Source of the DNA: Candidatus Fokinia solitaria
Lineage (GTDB): Bacteria; Pseudomonadota; Alphaproteobacteria; Rickettsiales; Midichloriaceae
Assembly (NCBI RefSeq): GCF_003072485.1
Contig: NZ_CP025989.1
Span: 150,001-182,000, forward strand
Direction of reading: 5' to 3'
DNA length: 32,000 bases
A program made the position numbers and the translations under genes. Each line of letters starts with the position of its first letter. Position 1 is the first letter of the stretch. A model generated the notes under the pieces. It saw only the letters and a program-made list of their open reading frames with translations, did not search any database and was not told where the DNA came from. Shown here in pieces: positions 15,270 through 24,031 of the stretch.

Positions 15270-15380
15270 AGGAAAGTGAAACTTAATGTAAGATAAGACA
15301 ATGATTTTTACGTGTAGTGGTATTGATTATCGTACATTATGTGTTGTAACATCTCCATGTTAAGAATAAAAATATAGTTG

Positions 15381-16553
15381 ATGATGAAGAAGAGGTTATA
15401 TCTATGTATTCTATGTGTCTTTTTTCTTGGTGTCTTATATGTAGCAGAGTCTAAGGCGTCCGAGTTAAGTAGAAAGGGAGATTATTTTACCTTTATGGCT
15501 TTGACCTCTGAGATAGTGCCACAAGTGAAATTACAGCAGTATCTCGAGCGTGGAGTCGGCGCTGAAGTGACGGGCACTGATGTAAAGAGTATTACAAATG
15601 GTACTGTACTTGTGCCTGGTTTTATATTTGGAGGAGGTTACATGTTTCGTGATATTGCTTTGAGTGCTTATTTTAGCCATTCTGCGAGAAAGCTTTCTCA
15701 GAGTGCATTGCAGTTCTCAAATGAGATGAAGATAGTTGGCAATTCAGTAGGACTTTCGGTGGTAAGGTACATTTCTGATATGAAGGTGCGCCCTTTTCTT
15801 GGAGTTACAGTGGATGTTTTGAGCTTGCAGTACACTTTATCTGGCATTAGAGCGTTTGATGCAAGTGGCGCACTCGCGGATAGTGATGTAGTGCGAGTAA
15901 GTGGCGCGTTGAAGAATAGAAGTGATGTGGTGTTTTCTCCTCTTTCAACAGAGGTAGAGTATAAGACAATATGTCTTGCTGCGAATGATGAGAATTATAC
16001 TTGCGTTCAGAATGATGTGCCTTCAGTGTCGTATGCTGCACTGCCTAAAGATGTGCTGTCGTTGCTTGCTTTCAATAGCGAGTTAAAAGCCACTAATAAG
16101 ACGAAATTAGGATTTTCCTTCACGGGAGGATTGTCATTTAGAGTAGATAATATAGTAATAGAAGGATTTGCGGCAGCGAACTTGAGGTCTAAATTGACTT
16201 TTGGTAATGAAAAAGCAGTATACGTAAATCGTAGTGCGCTGAATACTGTAGTGTCCGATGGTGTGCCGTATGATGATGTAAAGAGTGTATTAAATGGTAA
16301 GTATGTGTATCTTCAACAGAATGGCGTGTGTGATATGACGGTAGTGCAAAATCAAGACTGTCAAAATAGTGGTATGATGACTGGACAGGAAGCTATAGAT
16401 AGTATAGTTGTTGACGGTAAAAAAGGAGGAGATTTAGCATCTTACGTTTATACTGATGCCACTACTTATAAGGATTTCAGAACCTATATTCCGCAGGAAA
16501 TTGAGGGTACGCCAACTTATACTTTAGGAATCAGAGTACTTCTATTGTTTTAA
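15381..16553 (+). CDS. putative outer-membrane beta-barrel / surface protein
   Basis: Signal peptide MMKKRLYLCILCVFFLGVLYVAESKA/SE. Alternating beta-strand-like segments. C-terminal aromatic signature TYTLGIRVLLLF. The ORF-track start at 15378 is TTG; the first ATG is 15381. Family not assignable by eye. Confidence 0.65.
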   Translation: MMKKRLYLCILCVFFLGVLYVAESKASELSRKGDYFTFMALTSEIVPQVKLQQYLERGVGAEVTGTDVKSITNGTVLVPGFIFGGGYMFRDIALSAYFSHSARKLSQSALQFSNEMKIVGNSVGLSVVRYISDMKVRPFLGVTVDVLSLQYTLSGIRAFDASGALADSDVVRVSGALKNRSDVVFSPLSTEVEYKTICLAANDENYTCVQNDVPSVSYAALPKDVLSLLAFNSELKATNKTKLGFSFTGGLSFRVDNIVIEGFAAANLRSKLTFGNEKAVYVNRSALNTVVSDGVPYDDVKSVLNGKYVYLQQNGVCDMTVVQNQDCQNSGMMTGQEAIDSIVVDGKKGGDLASYVYTDATTYKDFRTYIPQEIEGTPTYTLGIRVLLLF

Positions 16554-16561
16554 AGGAAGTG

Positions 16562-16744
16562 ATGAAAATTGATATTACAAAATTACTGTTGTTGCTGATT
16601 GTCGCTTACATCATCGTTGGATGTGCTGGCTCCGTTAAGCGTAAGATGGGTGTGTTACCTTCTCTTCCTAATGAGAATGCCGTTCTGCATAATACCGTAC
16701 CACCGTCTAAAAGCACAAAAGAGCTGATTATACCTCCTGCATAG
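16562..16744 (+). CDS. small putative lipoprotein (about 40-aa mature peptide)
   Basis: Starts 8 nt after the OMP stop, with AAGGA upstream. Lipobox-like IIVG/C (LLLLLIVAYIIVGCAG). The mature part is Pro-rich (LPSLPNENAVLHNTVPPSKSTKELIIPPA). Short ORF, so moderate confidence. Confidence 0.5.
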   Translation: MKIDITKLLLLLIVAYIIVGCAGSVKRKMGVLPSLPNENAVLHNTVPPSKSTKELIIPPA

Positions 16745-16900
16745 GATTATTATTATGCATCTGATGGTAATTTCTTTATTTATGTTATATTAATATTTAC
16801 ACTATAAAATCGAATCATTATTGATAAAAGTTCTTTGCCTTAAGTAAGGATAATGATATCATCCTGGCATATATGAGTTTATAGAGTTTAAAATATTGAT

Positions 16901-17803
16901 ATGAAAGTTGCTACGTATGATATACAGCTTTCTGATACTTATATGATAGAGGAGTTCGTAAACTCTTTTGCTAGGTATAATGAGCATTTTTCACCTTCGT
17001 ATCCTTATTGGAGCTATAGAGCTGTACCGATGATGTATCTTGAAGATGAAGCGATTGAAACAGCGATACGAAGGTATTTTTCGCAAAATGTACTATTTGA
17101 GGTATATTTTGAAGAGCTATATAGCGTTGCGAGGTTGATGTATGTTTTGGATGCGAGAAAAATCTGTAGTGCTGCAAATTCTTTCAAGATATCTCTTAGT
17201 TTACTGGAAGGTTTATTCAATGAAAGTATCAAGAAGAGAGATTTTTGGATGCAAATGGTAGCTTTAGAGTCGAAAATAAACGAAAGCTTTACACGACATG
17301 GAGGTACTGGTTTACCGTTTTCATCAGCTAATATGCTCAATACGATAAATGATGATATACAGAGTAATAACAAAGAGAAGGTAGTAGCAAGTGAGAAGCT
17401 ACAAAAAGAAGAAAAAAGTAAAGCAGAAGTAGGATGTGTGAACAAAGTGGAAGAGTACTTTAAGAGAATATGCGAGGAGGATGAGCTGCAGAATTTAGAA
17501 GATAAGAGGAAGAAAGGAGATGATAAAGTGGCAAAGGTAGTGCAAGAAGTGGTGAAGGTAGTGCAAGAAGTGGTGAAGGAAGAAGAGCCGGTAGTGCAAG
17601 AAGGTAAGGAGGAAGAAGAGCCGGTAGTGCCAGTAGGTAAGGAGGAAGAAGAGCCGGTAGTGCCAGTAGGTAAGGAGGAAGAAGAGCCGGTAGTGCCAGT
17701 AGGTAAGGAAAGAAGAGAAGGTAGTGCAAGAAGTGGTGAAGGAAGAGGAGAAGGTAGTGCAAGAAGTGGTGAAGGAAGAGGAGAAGGTAGTGCCAGTAGG
17801 TAA
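16901..17803 (+). CDS. acidic tandem-repeat protein, N-terminal fragment (frame 2), runs out of frame inside the repeats
   Basis: 300-aa ORF with no signal peptide. From about aa 213 it has VVQEVVK x2, then GKEEEEPVVPV x3. After about 17710 the translation degenerates to EGSARSGEGRG and stops. Confidence 0.7.
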   Translation: MKVATYDIQLSDTYMIEEFVNSFARYNEHFSPSYPYWSYRAVPMMYLEDEAIETAIRRYFSQNVLFEVYFEELYSVARLMYVLDARKICSAANSFKISLSLLEGLFNESIKKRDFWMQMVALESKINESFTRHGGTGLPFSSANMLNTINDDIQSNNKEKVVASEKLQKEEKSKAEVGCVNKVEEYFKRICEEDELQNLEDKRKKGDDKVAKVVQEVVKVVQEVVKEEEPVVQEGKEEEEPVVPVGKEEEEPVVPVGKEEEEPVVPVGKERREGSARSGEGRGEGSARSGEGRGEGSASR

Positions 17804-17816
17804 GGAGGGAGAAGAG
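17537..17816 (+). repeat. in-gene tandem repeats: 21 nt x2, 33 nt x3, then 33 nt x2.8 variant units
   Basis: gtagtgcaagaagtggtgaag at 17537 and 17558. ggtaaggaggaagaagagccggtagtgccagta at 17603, 17636 and 17669. A fourth unit at 17702 is 2 nt short (ggtaagga-aagaagag). gaaggtagtgcaagaagtggtgaaggaagagga at 17717 and 17750, with a partial unit at 17783. Confidence 0.9.
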
Positions 17817-18830
17817 AAGAGGAGAGAAAGATGGGAAGGATTAAGTGAGGAGCAGAAGAAGGAAATGGAGAAGCTGCAGATTTCAGAAGAGAGAATAAAA
17901 AATATTATAGAGATACGACAAAAAGAGATTGATATATATCAGGGAAAAGATTACGACGACAAGATGATACTCATTCGAAAAAAGCTAAGTGAGAAATCGC
18001 TTCAATATGGACTACTAGCAAATCAGATAGAACAGAAGAAGTTGCTAGGAGAGTTAGATTCTATTCTGGAAATGGAAAAACAAAAGAATGAGAGAGAGTA
18101 TGAGCAATGGGTAATAAGAGAAGAGAGAGATCATGAGAAGTTGAAACATGTACAAGAGCAGGAATTGCCAAAGTTTATAATCACTGAAAACGATAGAAGA
18201 GCAGTTATAATAAAAGAGATGAGTGAGAAATCGCTTCAAGCGAACATAATAGCGGATCAAGCGTGGCAAATGGAATTAAAAGGAGATGTAGGAGGAGCTG
18301 CTGCACTTCGAAAGCAGTATCACTCTCCTCTTAGAGATGATGCTTATAAGATCAGCATGAAATTACACGATCTATACAGTATTGCTCCGTTTGCTCCTGC
18401 TAGATTAGAAGATAAAGATGTTGTGATGAAAGGAGGTACGAGAACAGATTACAGGACTTATACCTCTCCTAATAATCCAAATGTGTTATTCACTCACAGT
18501 TCAAAGAAGTTTTATAATGCATTTAAGGACGTTATACATAAGATACACTTCTGTAAACCTATGAAAGTAGGAGACTTCAATCCTTCTATATTCGAAGGTG
18601 ATAGAAAAAAGGAAATAATGGTCGCTCCTATGTGTACTTCTCCTCATTGTTGTCCAGGAACATCAGAGTTAACTCCTAGAGAGTTTTTCGTCGCAGATGA
18701 TCATTACAACAATGCCGATGTATTTACCCTCTCTACCAATGATATGTTATACACTACATACGACGGTGTAGTTCATCACAATGGCGGCATCGATTCCTCC
18801 ATACTTCATACAGATAGCGTTATATCTTAG
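17703..18830 (+). CDS. acidic tandem-repeat protein, C-terminal fragment (frame 0)
   Basis: Frame 0 opens at 17703, right after a TAG. It immediately continues the same peptide repeat (EEKVVQEVVKEEEKVVQEVVKEEEKVVPVGKE). A coiled-coil-like E/K-rich region and a Cys/His-containing C-terminal domain follow. There is no ATG until about aa 47 of the ORF-track product (its 'M' is GTG 17724), so it is most simply the continuation of 16901..17710. Confidence 0.7.
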   Translation, partial: VRKEEKVVQEVVKEEEKVVQEVVKEEEKVVPVGKEGEEKRRERWEGLSEEQKKEMEKLQISEERIKNIIEIRQKEIDIYQGKDYDDKMILIRKKLSEKSLQYGLLANQIEQKKLLGELDSILEMEKQKNEREYEQWVIREERDHEKLKHVQEQELPKFIITENDRRAVIIKEMSEKSLQANIIADQAWQMELKGDVGGAAALRKQYHSPLRDDAYKISMKLHDLYSIAPFAPARLEDKDVVMKGGTRTDYRTYTSPNNPNVLFTHSSKKFYNAFKDVIHKIHFCKPMKVGDFNPSIFEGDRKKEIMVAPMCTSPHCCPGTSELTPREFFVADDHYNNADVFTLSTNDMLYTTYDGVVHHNGGIDSSILHTDSVIS

Positions 18831-21582: not shown

Positions 21583-21906
21583 ATGACTCATGTAGTAACT
21601 GATAAATGTATAAGATGTAAGTATACGGATTGTGTAGAAGTATGCCCTGTTGAATGTTTTCATGAAGCGAAGAACATGCTTGTGATAAATCCTGATGAGT
21701 GCATTGATTGCGGCGTATGTGTAGCTGAATGTCCTATAGGAGCTATTCAATCTGAAATAGATGCTGAGCCTATATGGCTGGAGATAAACTCAAAATATGC
21801 TAAGAAGTTTCCTCGCATTCTCGAGAAGAAGATGCCTATGGCGGAAGCAGAGGTTTATAAGGACGTTGTAAATAAGGAAAAGTTTCTTAACGAAAATGAT
21901 GAGTAA
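21583..21906 (+). CDS. fdxA: 7Fe ferredoxin (3Fe-4S + 4Fe-4S), FdxA type
   Basis: 107 aa. [27 protein letters not shown] and [14 protein letters not shown]. Its last ~100 nt are homologous to the tail of the downstream 278-bp repeat unit. Confidence 0.93.
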
Positions 21907-22708
21907 CTTTGTAAAGATCGTTTAGATAGATTCGCAAAGATTGCTTAGATAAATGATAAGTGATTTTTACAAGGACTTCTTGAGAAAATGACTGTGTTTC
22001 TGCGAGTTTCTCGAGAAGCCGAAAGAAATTTCTGTAATAGCTTTTCCATGTGTTTATAGAGCTTCTACAATAGAGGCGCTTTATCTGTTTATAGAAAGGA
22101 TGTTACTGATGAATCGATGGTGCTGCTTTTCTCATGATGCGGTGATTTGATTACTGCGAAGTTCTTAGTGAAGATGATGAGTAACTTTGTAAAGATCGTT
22201 TAGATAGATTCGTAAAGATTGCTTGGATAAATGATAAGTGATTTTTACAAGGACTTCTTGAGCAAATGACTATGTTTCTGCGAGTTTCTCGAGAAGCCGA
22301 AAGAAACTTCTGTAATAGCTTTTCTATGTGTTTATAGAGCTTCTGTAATAGAGGCGTCCTATCTGTTTATAGAAGAGATGTTACCGATGAATCGATGGTG
22401 CTGCTTTCTTCATGATGCGGTGATTTGATTACTGCGAAGTTCTTAGTGAAAATGATGAGTAACTTCATAAAGATCGTTTAGATAGATTCGCAAAGATTGC
22501 TTAGATAAATGATAAGTGATTTTTACAAGGACTTCTTGAGAAAATGACTGTGTTTCGAGTTTCTTGGAAAAGTTACAGAAACTTCTGTAATAGCGCTTTT
22601 CTATGTGTTTATAGAGCTTTCTGTAATAGAGGTATCTTATCTGTTTATAAAAGAGATGTTACTGATGAATCGATGGTGCTGCTTTCTTCATGATGCGGTG
22701 ATGTTTGA
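21896..22708. repeat. 278-bp tandem repeat, about 2.9 copies, non-coding
   Basis: The unit start 'atgatgagtaac' recurs at 21896, 22174 and 22452, an exact 278-nt spacing. Copies 1 and 2 differ by roughly 15-20 substitutions by eye. Copy 3 has small indels and ends near 22703-22708. No ORF of 60 aa or more in any frame. Confidence 0.95.
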
Positions 22709-23022
22709 AATGGTATCTATATCTTCACAATACTGTTATTTCAAGATGTAAAGTTCAAGTTCAGACTATGTAAGAAAAACGTAGTAGATATGTTATATAT
22801 CAGTCTTATTACAGCAAAACGATGCTATATCGCAGAGCTAAGGCTATTGTTACTACTATTATGTCGCTTCTTACGATAAATATATTTGCGCGAAAACGAT
22901 AAGTAGTAAATATTGCTATCTCATTATCATCCCTTGCTTAGTTTCAAGAGATGTGCGTATATCTTTTTCTTCTATGATAAAAAAGTTATTCAAAGCTTCT
23001 GAAATTTTTCCGACTTATGAAA

Positions 23023-23060
23023 GCGACTCTGATGCGGAGTCGTACTCTTCTTTTTATTTT
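23023..23060 (+). terminator. orphan terminator-like hairpin plus T-rich tail
   Basis: gcgactc (23023-23029), loop tgatgcg, gagtcgt (23037-23043, 7 bp including one G-U), followed by actcttctttttatttt. No intact gene lies upstream, so it could be the ancestral tuf-fdxA terminator. Confidence 0.3.
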
Positions 23061-23473
23061 GAATAAATATATTTAATTATTTTTGAAGATATTAATGCTA
23101 TTTCATAATTTCGTTAGATGCTTATACATTACTTTTCTGATGATTGATGCTTTTTATCCTATGCTTTTTGCATGATTGGAAAATCTTTACAGTACCTTCA
23201 ATGCTATCATAAAGTGTGATGAGTAATAACACACTCTCTTTATGAATATATGGTAAATCATTTCTGCTATTTTATAGATTTCCAGCGTATTGTCACTGTA
23301 GTTTCTTCATCATTTGAAGATTACTTTATATGTCTTATAGTATGAAAAATGACAATATGTAATGAAAAATTTGTGAATATAAAAGAGTATAAGAAAGTAT
23401 AAGAGAATATAAGACAGTTTAAGCTGAACGAGAGCTAAGATTATGTAGAGCTTTAGGCAAAATCTTACATCGC

Positions 23474-23950
23474 ATGAAGACGTAATTGTTAGAGATTTAT
23501 TTATTGTTTACTCAAATTTGAGAAGATATTCGCTTCATAAGATATCATCTAACTTCAAATAGAAGTCCTTTTTAAGTTAAGGACAATTTTTGATACTTCA
23601 CTATGCGCTTCGAAAAAGAATATAGAACAAAACACTTTTTTGAACTTACTCAATGCATAGATAAAGCATATTAAAATGCATTTTTAATACTTGTATAAAA
23701 TATATCAGTGATAAAATTACGAATGTAAGAAAAGGATTTTTCTAGATATTTCTGCGCTTTTTATATATTTTTGCGTGAAGGATAGCGAGAAGCGCTATAG
23801 TTTCTACTCTTCAAAGAAGGGTATGCCACTTTTTTGATATCTGTTGAGGATGTATCTTCGATTTCGCATCGAGAGAAACGTTATCAAAGCTGAAGTAGAA
23901 GTTGAGATTTAAAGATATTCTTCAAAACAAGACATAACCATCACTAAGCT
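23474..23950 (+). pseudogene. tuf: eroded partial copy of tuf (relic), truncated at tRNA-Thr
   Basis: Colinear nucleotide matches to intact tuf, with many stops and deletions. 23840 tctgttgaggatgtatcttcgatttcgca matches 21031 cctgttgaagatgtgttttcgatttcggg. 23869 atcgagaga...aaagctgaagtagaagttgagattt matches 21085 attgagaga...aaagttggcgcagaagttgagattg. 23795 ttctactcttcaaagaagg matches 20990 tcctactcctcaaagagaa. 23711 gataaaattacgaatgtaag matches 20841 gatttacttacgaaatatgg. 23474 atgaaga/cgtaa matches the tuf start atgaaga...cgtaa. About 790 nt of tuf is compressed to about 480 nt. Confidence 0.65.
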
Positions 23951-23956
23951 TCTATT

Positions 23957-24031
23957 TGGTGCCGTTAGTGAGAATCGAACTCACGACCTCTTCATTACCA
24001 ATGAAGTGCACTACCACTGTGCTATAACGGC
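23957..24031 (-). tRNA. tRNA-Thr (anticodon GGT), CCA encoded
   Basis: Hand-folded cloverleaf. Acceptor GCCGTTA/TAACGGC, D stem GCAC/GTGC, anticodon stem CTTCA/TGAAG with loop TTGGTAA, T arm GTGAG-TTCGATT-CTCAC, then A-CCA. 75 nt. Its 5-prime end lies 5 nt after the atpD stop. Confidence 0.93.

Follow-up and report, generated by a model that had tools for sequence, protein, structure and literature searches.

Split and interrupted genes are known in Rickettsiales undergoing genome reduction, as seen in the comparison of Rickettsia conorii with Rickettsia prowazekii and in the fragmented sca genes that encode surface proteins. Tandem-repeat proteins (TRPs) are known in the Anaplasmataceae, where they include TRP32, TRP47, TRP75 and TRP120 of Ehrlichia and MSP1a of Anaplasma marginale. 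In this study, we analyzed a 32-kb stretch of DNA (the window) from "Candidatus Fokinia solitaria," an endosymbiont of Paramecium, in which a tandem-repeat gene is divided between two reading frames. The locus resembles the Rickettsia split genes in several respects: it belongs to a Rickettsiales endosymbiont with a small genome, its consecutive same-strand open reading frames (ORFs) are cut by a small indel, the pieces are annotated as hypothetical, and the orthologue in a sister species is independently broken at another site. Unlike in the Rickettsia examples, the Fokinia lesion lies in the gene's own tandem repeat, and the gene is one of an orphan family that is restricted to the genus and includes intact paralogues elsewhere in the genome. 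With the Anaplasmataceae proteins it shares acidic tandem peptide repeats whose number and sequence vary among paralogues and species, as well as fast evolution, and by analogy its host association points to a function at the surface or as an effector. We found no sequence or family relationship to these proteins in Pfam or NCBIfam. The Fokinia repeat is rich in E, V, K and P rather than in Ser and Asp, and the protein carries a conserved Cys-containing C-terminal domain, which the TRPs are without. Membership among the Ehrlichia-type TRP effectors was considered and rejected, as no Pfam or NCBIfam family matched and homologues were confined to Fokinia. We propose, with a probability of about 0.6, that the two Fokinia ORFs are halves of one ancestral gene separated by a genuine and recent 2-bp deletion, which would make this copy of a redundant and fast-evolving orphan family a pseudogene or split gene.

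The features of the locus are listed in Table 1. ORF1 consists of an N-terminal domain, the family linker and about 4.5 repeat units, followed by a 30-codon out-of-frame tail that ends at the TAA at 17801-17803. The TAG at 17700-17702 belongs to the ORF2 frame. This frame covers roughly 3.5 repeat units, the K/E-rich and presumably helical region, and the C-terminal domain. The annotated start of ORF2 is either GTG 17757 (Fsol_00162, 357 aa), which has a GAGGAG 8 nt upstream, or GTG 17724 (WP_233485218.1, 368 aa), and both GenBank and RefSeq enter Fsol_00161 and Fsol_00162 as two genes. The two open frames overlap by 98 nt (17703-17800). The promoter-like site ahead of ORF1 is weak evidence, because such sites are no more numerous in the region than in shuffled sequences. 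The first-pass annotation had described ORFs at 16901..17803 and 17724..18830 that overlap within a repeat array, with a TAG just ahead of the second frame; these coordinates (300 and 368 aa) and the frame layout were confirmed.

Table 1. Features of the split tandem-repeat gene of F. solitaria, in window coordinates
Feature	Position	Strand	Description
Promoter-like site	16835..16862	+	TTGCCT, 16-nt spacer, TG, TATCAT; 39 nt upstream of ORF1 start (consensus scan)
ORF1	16901..17803	+	300 aa; annotated Fsol_00161 (AWD32968.1 / WP_108673011.1)
N-terminal domain	17051..17320	+	ORF1 aa 51-140; blastp against syntenic F. cryptica protein, 32% over 89-90 aa, E = 1e-14
Pre-repeat linker	17420..17524	+	KAEVGCVNKVEEYFKRICEEDELQNLEDKRKKGDD; ORF1 frame; tblastn 88.6% identity over 35 aa
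Tandem array	17525..17819	+	33-nt (11-aa) units, E/V/K-rich; P-type block, then K-type block
Defective fifth unit	17690..17720	+	31 nt instead of 33; frame-change point
ORF2 reading frame	17703..18830	+	Open directly after TAG 17700-17702
ORF1 out-of-frame tail	17711..17803	+	RREGSARSGEGRGEGSARSGEGRGEGSASR, then TAA; wrong-frame reading of repeat units
K/E-rich region	17820..18218	+	Between repeats and C-terminal domain; presumed helical/coiled-coil linker, from composition
Conserved C-terminal domain	18219..18827	+	About 200 aa; begins with helices; invariant FCKP…PMCT…CCPG motifs

The frame changes inside the array. Tandem Repeats Finder detected a period of 33 at 17577-17819 (7.4 copies, 88% matches, score 283), and the in-register units start at 17558, 17591, 17624, 17657, 17690, 17721, 17754 and 17787. 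The P-type block encodes VVPVGKEEEEP, with identical units at 17624 and 17657, and the K-type block encodes VVQEVVKEEEK, with identical units at 17721 and 17754. An earlier description of three perfect units at 17603, 17636 and 17669 refers to the same array in another register and holds in part: units 17624 and 17657 are identical, but unit 17690 matches them only over its first 20 nt. The short unit, which in register is the fifth, is indeed 2 nt under length, as had been proposed. It reads GTAGTGCCAGTAGGTAAGGA-AAGAAGAGAAG where adjacent units have ...GGTAAGGAGGAAGAAGAG..., so that GG is absent between 17709 and 17710 (GGTAAGGA^AAGAAGAG); the same change can be written as one extra A in the AAA at 17709-17711. 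The lesion is located at the boundary of the P-type and K-type blocks, and the only run in its local context, GGTAAGGAAAGAAGAG (17702-17717), is A3. The window contains the junction sequence a single time, with 0 occurrences expected. Reversal of this indel, which is not divisible by three, restores a single ORF. The joined protein is 643 aa long when GG is added and 642 aa long when one A is removed, in line with the earlier estimate of about 640 aa, and in either repair the peptide repeat runs unbroken across the junction (...VVPVGKEEEKVVQEVVKEEEK...). The window copy of the gene carries no other lesion, and no second copy of the ORF1/ORF2 gene was found elsewhere in the window.

Intact homologues cross the break in one frame. 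In the F. solitaria paralogues Fsol_00636 and Fsol_00686 (proteins P0001, 503 aa, and P0003, 449 aa), the linker, repeats and C-terminal domain all lie in a single frame. Homology to both begins abruptly at the linker, where the alignment opens with KAEVGCVN (nt 17420, ORF1 frame), and continues unbroken into the ORF2 frame as far as 18827. ORF1 and ORF2 therefore share ancestry as parts of one gene, and the deposited sequence carries a frameshift between them. The proposal that the second frame carries on the peptide repeat of the first is upheld by the paralogues, which join both frames, and by the continuity of the repaired peptide; the broader proposal of one tandem-repeat gene split by a net +1/-2 frame change in its own repeats gains further support from a syntenic orthologue. 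We estimate that a random frame at the local base composition would stay open for 376 codons with p ~1e-11. The two long overlapping frames are thus not due to chance, and homologues that join both frames also exist. The ORF1 N-terminal domain is missing from the F. solitaria paralogues, whose N terminus is a TM-like helix. We checked for this helix upstream of 17420 in another frame, where additional frameshifts could have concealed it, and it is absent. The last ~160 residues of ORF2 are virtually identical to the paralogues. The intactness of ORF2 and this near-identity are what an error would leave and also what would follow from a mutation of very recent date, from retained function or from gene conversion, and they do not discriminate among these.

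A lesion within a tandem repeat could reflect phase variation, in which reversible slipped-strand mispairing in the repeat toggles production of the full-length protein. The contingency loci of Neisseria, Haemophilus and Campylobacter offer a parallel, as here too a putative surface or effector repeat gene has its frame broken in repetitive DNA. Repeat copy number differs among the paralogues (~8.5, 6 and 1.5 units), which indicates that the array is unstable, and loss of unit 5 by unequal recombination could bring the frame back. Unlike at contingency loci, however, the indel lies outside any homopolymer or short-unit tract, and the Fokinia unit of 33 nt is divisible by three, so that gain or loss of whole units never shifts the frame. 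The lesion falls in GGA^AAG, near which are only A3 and GGAGGA, with no homopolymer of ≥7 nt and no tract of 1- to 8-nt repeats, and nothing similar is present in the paralogues or the orthologue. Slipped-strand on/off switching, one of the explanations first suggested for the locus, is very improbable on these grounds.

Programmed +1 (or -2) ribosomal frameshifting, which would make full-length protein from the sequence as deposited, is harder still to credit. The locus is like prfB in having overlapping frames that need a net +1 shift and purine-rich SD-like sequences nearby. The frames would be joined by a shift at any point of the overlap, and the repeats probably act as a tolerant spacer. 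The lesion is followed by AGA AGA, and the AGG-TAA at the end of ORF1 has SD-like sequences near it. However, AGA is the commonest Arg codon (20.6 per 1000), which leaves no hungry codon, and none of the overlap codons (GGT AAG GAA AGA AGA GAA GGT AGT GCA…AGG TAA) re-pairs at +1. The shift point has no rare or stop codon in the A site, and the distance from the final sense codon of ORF1 (AGG-TAA) to the closest SD-like GAGGAG, which lies upstream, is 14 nt, compared with 3 nt in prfB. In contrast to prfB, the Fokinia gene lacks a slippery codon of the CUU-U type, an in-frame stop where the shift would occur and an SD-like element at 3-nt spacing. Neither the two paralogues nor the orthologue requires a shift at the lesion site, so conservation, which is a hallmark of programmed sites, is missing as well. 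Neither programmed frameshifting nor phase variation is supported, because there is no slippery site, hungry codon or short-unit tract and the position is not conserved. Thus, two of the four explanations in the first-pass annotation, phase switching and +1 frameshifting, find no support, while pseudogenization (or fission) is favored and assembly error is a less likely alternative.

The syntenic locus in F. cryptica (L001) has the same gene order as the window: a gene for a 391-aa OMP-like protein, a small ORF, the repeat gene, a Na+/H+ antiporter gene and the gene for EF-Tu. The F. solitaria split gene accordingly sits between the OMP-like gene and the antiporter/tuf genes. The F. cryptica product has a homologous N-terminal domain (E = 1e-14), repeats of its own, a helical region and the C-terminal domain. 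This copy is also split into two ORFs (CP110343.1 260341-262328). The possibility that relatives carry two separately initiated, conserved genes here, raised at first pass, holds to the extent that F. cryptica does have two ORFs. However, its copy is without a break at the position of the F. solitaria lesion; its own break lies ~170 codons further downstream (window equivalent 18219, …IIKE|MSEK…) and is a deletion of 1 nt when compared with the F. cryptica paralogue at L002, whose frame crosses that site. Because the break sites differ and the L002 paralogue reads through, the two-ORF state is derived, and each species acquired it independently. According to its published description, the F. 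cryptica genome was sequenced with Illumina reads and finished by PCR and Sanger sequencing, and the disruption of its locus is therefore unlikely to be a long-read homopolymer artifact. That this copy is also disrupted shows that the copy at this locus tolerates disruption. For the F. cryptica syntenic copy compared with its paralogue, dN/dS is 0.87 downstream of the split (7 synonymous and 25 nonsynonymous substitutions) and 0.45 upstream; these values rest on few substitutions and concern the F. cryptica copies, not the window gene, but the high ratio fits relaxed constraint. Judged by protein identity to F. cryptica, the split gene is the fastest evolving in its neighborhood, at 32 to 40% versus 46 to 97% for the neighboring genes.

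An assembly or polishing artifact would mean that the true fifth unit is 33 nt (or 30 nt) long and that the locus holds one ORF of ~643 aa. The 2-nt loss (or a 1-nt gain in AAA) would have come from PacBio bridging or from mis-polishing of a repeat common to three paralogues. We regard both the artifact and this route to it as unlikely, although several observations speak for them. The tandem repeat that bears the lesion is also present in two paralogues, the downstream sequence is wholly intact and nearly identical to them, and a family member in F. cryptica contains an unresolved 400-N gap with duplicated flanks, which shows that genes of this family are hard to assemble. On the other hand, residual errors of Illumina or PacBio sequencing do not typically take the form of a 2-nt deletion away from long homopolymers, and a single read is longer than the perfectly periodic stretch, with ~110 nt between distinguishing positions compared with a read length of 150 nt. 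The other syntenic genes in the window are unbroken and have the same lengths as in F. cryptica, which indicates that the assembly is not riddled with indels. Disruption of the orthologue in a genome based on Illumina and Sanger data also makes disruption at this locus biologically plausible. A search of JGI metagenomes for junction variants (pattern with N{0,4}) gave zero matches. According to the published genome paper, F. solitaria was sequenced with 100-1000x Illumina coverage plus PacBio and assembled with Unicycler; the depth of Illumina coverage argues against an artifact, whereas the hybrid assembly with manual bioinformatic joins would leave room for one.

We infer that the lesion is real. 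Under the deletion model, the fifth 33-nt unit of the F. solitaria syntenic copy would have lost 2 nt recently in evolutionary terms, probably when the purine-rich repeats slipped or recombined out of register. This origin is probable because the lesion is exactly at the junction of two recently amplified blocks. Ribosomes that start at 16901 would then make a 300-aa product in which the N-terminal domain and 4.5 repeats are followed by 30 nonsense residues. Detached from this product, the C-terminal domain would be expressed, if at all, only where translation happens to start internally, as it might at GTG 17757, which has GAGGAG ahead of it. Such a loss may be tolerated because the intact Fsol_00636 and Fsol_00686 carry the same C-terminal domain.

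A real mutation could also have resulted in functional gene fission, in which each piece is expressed and serves as a protein of its own, one with the N-terminal domain and repeats and the other, started at GTG 17757 or 17724, with repeats, helical region and C-terminal domain. The syntenic copy consists of two long, otherwise intact ORFs in both species, and in F. cryptica these overlap by ATGA, a typical coupling arrangement; yet the break points are ~170 codons apart, which implies that there is no conserved two-protein architecture. The SD-like motif ahead of GTG 17757 would suit a second start, but an SD-like motif and a GTG occur in every K-type unit and are therefore incidental. Similarly, conservation of the ORF2 C-terminal domain and the listing of two genes in GenBank and RefSeq agree with fission, whereas the nonsense tail at the end of ORF1 and a dN/dS near 1 in the downstream piece of F. 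cryptica do not. Both the fission itself and this division of its products strike us as distinctly improbable. Selection or compensation of the two-ORF state in both Fokinia species is a more speculative proposal that we hold to be a long shot. It would involve adaptive uncoupling of the N-terminal domain and repeats from the C-terminal domain, or low-level recoding that yields some full-length protein. The F. cryptica break reads …GAA AAA TGA with an overlapping ATG, and from this sequence a -1 slip of tRNA-Lys on A-AAA at the "shifty stop" could restore the paralogue's …SEK-MNEK… exactly. The present analysis does not support a new regulatory mechanism, and the most likely account is not a regulated switch but the ordinary decay or fission of a gene whose family is redundant.

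The family to which the gene belongs appears, from sequence comparisons, to be a multicopy, fast-evolving orphan family restricted to Fokinia. Searches of 5.8 billion proteins and 1.84 billion cluster representatives found homologues only in Fokinia, and the C-terminal domain gave zero matches in JGI metagenomes. A search of the 5.8 billion proteins with the N-terminal domain returned only the self match, and its F. cryptica orthologue was identified via synteny. Profile searches on the domains gave a best Pfam hit to DUF7667 below threshold (E = 0.085), no meaningful match in NCBIfam and a best E value of 0.46 in PDB. AlphaFold2 reached a pLDDT of 36 with a single sequence and of 56 with a 4-sequence alignment; the models begin at 18162 and show long helices, at low confidence, only at ~18186-18374. 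Foldseek found nothing under E = 1 in PDB, and its top matches reflect the helical hairpin only. The three F. solitaria copies have almost the same C-terminal domain, which shares 40% identity with F. cryptica WPX97741.1 and Fokcrypt_00025. As predicted from the sequences, the family layout comprises a variable N-terminal module that may be soluble or membrane anchored, acidic E/V/K repeats of variable number, a helical region and the C-terminal domain.

For annotation, these results mean that Fsol_00161 and Fsol_00162 are best regarded as one disrupted gene of the same family as Fsol_00636 and Fsol_00686 and that the F. cryptica pair is best regarded likewise. The copy at a conserved locus has thus been disrupted independently in two Fokinia species. 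With its variable N terminus, acidic repeats and conserved Cys-rich C-terminal domain, the family is a reasonable candidate for a role in host interaction in an endosymbiont of Paramecium.

The relationship between the two overlapping ORFs, ORF1 and ORF2, turns on a single aberrant unit in the tandem-repeat array that they share. Although annotated as two separate hypothetical proteins, Fsol_00161 and Fsol_00162, they meet within a period-33 array at 17577-17819 (7.4 copies, 88% matches, score 283; Tandem Repeats Finder), whose in-register units start at 17558, 17591, 17624, 17657, 17690, 17721, 17754, and 17787. The unit at 17690, GTAGTGCCAGTAGGTAAGGA^AAGAAGAGAAG, is 31 nt long where 33 are expected: the GG of GGTAAGGAGGAAGAAGAG is missing, which affects the frame as one extra A in the AAA at 17709-17711 would. 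A TAG at 17700-17702 shuts the ORF2 frame directly upstream of the lesion, and ORF1 stops at a TAA at 17801-17803. In silico, the ORF becomes 642 aa long when one A is removed and 643 aa long when GG is inserted, and after either repair the peptide repeat is unbroken across the junction. The ORF coordinates, the array, and the 31-nt unit were all reproduced, so that the first-pass annotation described the split ORFs accurately.

Features of the split gene, its paralogues, and its F. cryptica orthologue (window coordinates unless L001, the syntenic F. cryptica locus, is named)
Feature	Position	Strand	Length	Remarks
ORF1	16901..17803	+	300 aa	Fsol_00161
ORF2	17724..18830	same as ORF1	368 aa from GTG 17724 (RefSeq); 357 aa from GTG 17757	Fsol_00162 is the 357-aa form
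P-type repeat units	17624, 17657			identical; VVPVGKEEEEP
K-type repeat units	17721, 17754			identical; VVQEVVKEEEK
Paralogue P0001			503 aa	Fsol_00636
Paralogue P0003			449/453 aa	Fsol_00686
F. cryptica upstream ORF	L001 8619..10004		461 aa	N-domain, repeat, helical region
F. cryptica downstream ORF	L001 10001..10606		201 aa	C-domain, 40% identity to that of the window

A homologue search with the repaired protein returned three proteins and no others; each belongs to "Candidatus Fokinia solitaria" (Rickettsiales, Midichloriaceae), a Paramecium endosymbiont with an 837,348-bp genome. Alignment of the paralogues P0001 and P0003 to the ORF1 frame begins abruptly at KAEVGCVN (nt 17420), and both pass through their own repeats into the ORF2 frame, unbroken to the final residue. 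Judged from these alignments, ORF1 and ORF2 are halves of one gene. The window copy carries about 8.5 repeat units, compared with about 6 in P0001 and about 1.5 in P0003. The paralogues start with a short, hydrophobic TM-like helix (Kyte-Doolittle mean of 1.93 over 19 residues), and ORF1 with a 173-residue module that lacks such a helix and has no further homologue among 5.8 billion proteins. Over window positions 17420-18830, differences among the three F. solitaria copies cluster in the helical region and spare the last ~160 residues, which hardly vary; this mosaic pattern suggests that gene conversion may have occurred between paralogues.

An exhaustive HMMER search of 1.84 billion cluster representatives with the C-terminal 222 residues recovered only the F. 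solitaria cluster and one 201-aa protein from "Ca. Fokinia cryptica/crypta." That protein is encoded at L001 (CP110343.1:251723-272328), a locus in synteny with the window; both have the order 391-aa OMP-like gene, small ORF, gene of interest, Na+/H+ antiporter, EF-Tu, ferredoxin, and atpD. The N-domain of the upstream F. cryptica ORF matches ORF1 residues 51-140 (32% identity, E = 1e-14), and its repeat differs from that of the window, being E/K/S-rich with a period of 102-117 nt. Because the L001 ORF pair encodes all four parts, in both species the N-domain, repeats, helical region, and C-domain form one unit at this locus. The F. cryptica break (L001 9996-10007) reads …TCC GAA AAA TGA, with an ATG overlapping as ATGA. 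A paralogue with a TM-like N-terminus, Fokcrypt_00025 at a second locus, L002 (CP110343.1:15823-28581), crosses the equivalent position in one frame (…KERMTLLAHKMNESF…), and DNA alignment of the two copies places a single 1-nt gap in the L001 copy. Since the break sites differ and this paralogue reads straight through, the two-ORF state is derived and arose independently in each species. The first-pass annotation had considered that two separately initiated, conserved genes might lie here; two ORFs are indeed found in F. cryptica as well, but the two-gene architecture is not conserved, with the split at window-equivalent 18219, some 170 codons past the point where the F. solitaria gene is broken. 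The A-AAA-TGA of L001 could possibly act as a "shifty stop," at which a -1 slip of tRNA-Lys would restore the …SEK-MNEK… of the paralogue exactly. Fokcrypt_00025 itself contains a 400-N gap (L002 5601-6000), and RefSeq labels the piece downstream of it "partial." About 215 nt of identical sequence is present on either side of the gap, a sign that an assembly join was left unresolved.

We favor a real mutation, a 2-nt deletion inside the repeat array, as the cause of the frame change in F. solitaria. The lesion sits exactly where the P-type block, which is window-specific and recently amplified, meets the K-type block, and this position suggests that the purine-rich repeats may have slipped out of register or recombined, with the 2-nt loss as a by-product. 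An assembly error is unlikely. In favor of an error, Unicycler combined Illumina (100-1000x) and PacBio Sequel reads into the genome with some joins made manually, the lesion lies in repetitive sequence that the paralogues share, and it is a family member that contains the gap in the F. cryptica assembly. Against it, the loss of 2 nt does not fall in a long homopolymer, a 150-nt read is longer than the perfectly periodic stretch, all other syntenic genes in the 32-kb window match their F. cryptica counterparts in length, and the orthologue is disrupted too, in an Illumina/Sanger genome. Recent pseudogenization, as the first-pass annotation had proposed among other options, agrees with such a real mutation, with the two intact paralogues, which supply redundancy, and with the independent break in F. 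cryptica. There, comparison of the syntenic copy with its paralogue gives a dN/dS of 0.87 for the part after the split and 0.45 for the part before it, values that are based on few substitutions and fit relaxed constraint. Each K-type unit happens to carry GAGGAG with a GTG 8 nt on, at which ORF2 might still be initiated.

The other two proposals, translational +1 frameshifting and slipped-strand on/off switching, are not supported. Programmed joining of ORF1 and ORF2 would have to occur in the overlap at 17703-17800, which has no codon able to re-pair at +1; AGA, present twice after the lesion, is the most used Arg codon of the window (20.6 per 1000). The nearest SD-like GAGGAG lies 14 nt upstream of the ORF1 stop (AGG TAA), unlike the 3-nt spacing in prfB. 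No homologue, whether paralogue or F. cryptica orthologue, has a shift at this site. As for phase variation, a gain or loss of whole units leaves the frame intact because the unit is 33 nt, and the lesion, GGA^AAG, offers a run of only three A residues, although unequal recombination removing unit 5 could in principle revert it. We see no sign in the sequence of a regulated or recoding mechanism.

Pfam and NCBIfam searches with both ORFs gave no family match, nor did a PDB sequence search give a match; AlphaFold2 models were of low confidence (pLDDT of 36 and 56), and Foldseek against PDB returned nothing under E = 1. Interspecies identity, 32-40% for the split gene, rises to 46% in the OMP-like gene, 72% in the small ORF, 76% in the antiporter, and 97% in EF-Tu; the split gene evolves much faster than these neighbors. 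The first two of these neighbors lie directly upstream of ORF1 (15378-16744); the 391-aa OMP-like ORF has a signal-peptide-like N-terminus, the 61-aa ORF resembles a lipoprotein (…LLLLIVAYIIVGCAG…), and neither was assigned to a family in Pfam or NCBIfam searches. Farther downstream, about 2 kb (21906-23957) between ferredoxin (21583..21906) and tRNA-Thr/atpD has no ORF of at least 50 aa and no Rfam match; a 278-nt tandem repeat (21884-22702; 2.9 copies, 91% matches) occurs there along with a TATAAGAGAG repeat (23378-23423), and the corresponding F. cryptica interval measures no more than about 150 nt (L001 13852-14006).

By resemblance to tandem-repeat proteins of other Rickettsiales, a surface or host-interaction role would fit three features of the family: its variable acidic repeats, its N-terminal variants, either membrane-anchored or soluble, and its C-domain with conserved Cys residues (FCKP…PMCT…CCPG). 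For an endosymbiont undergoing reductive evolution, such an interruption of a repeat gene is nothing unusual. Of mild note are the definition of a new Fokinia-specific orphan family and the finding that the same syntenic copy has been disrupted independently in the sister species.
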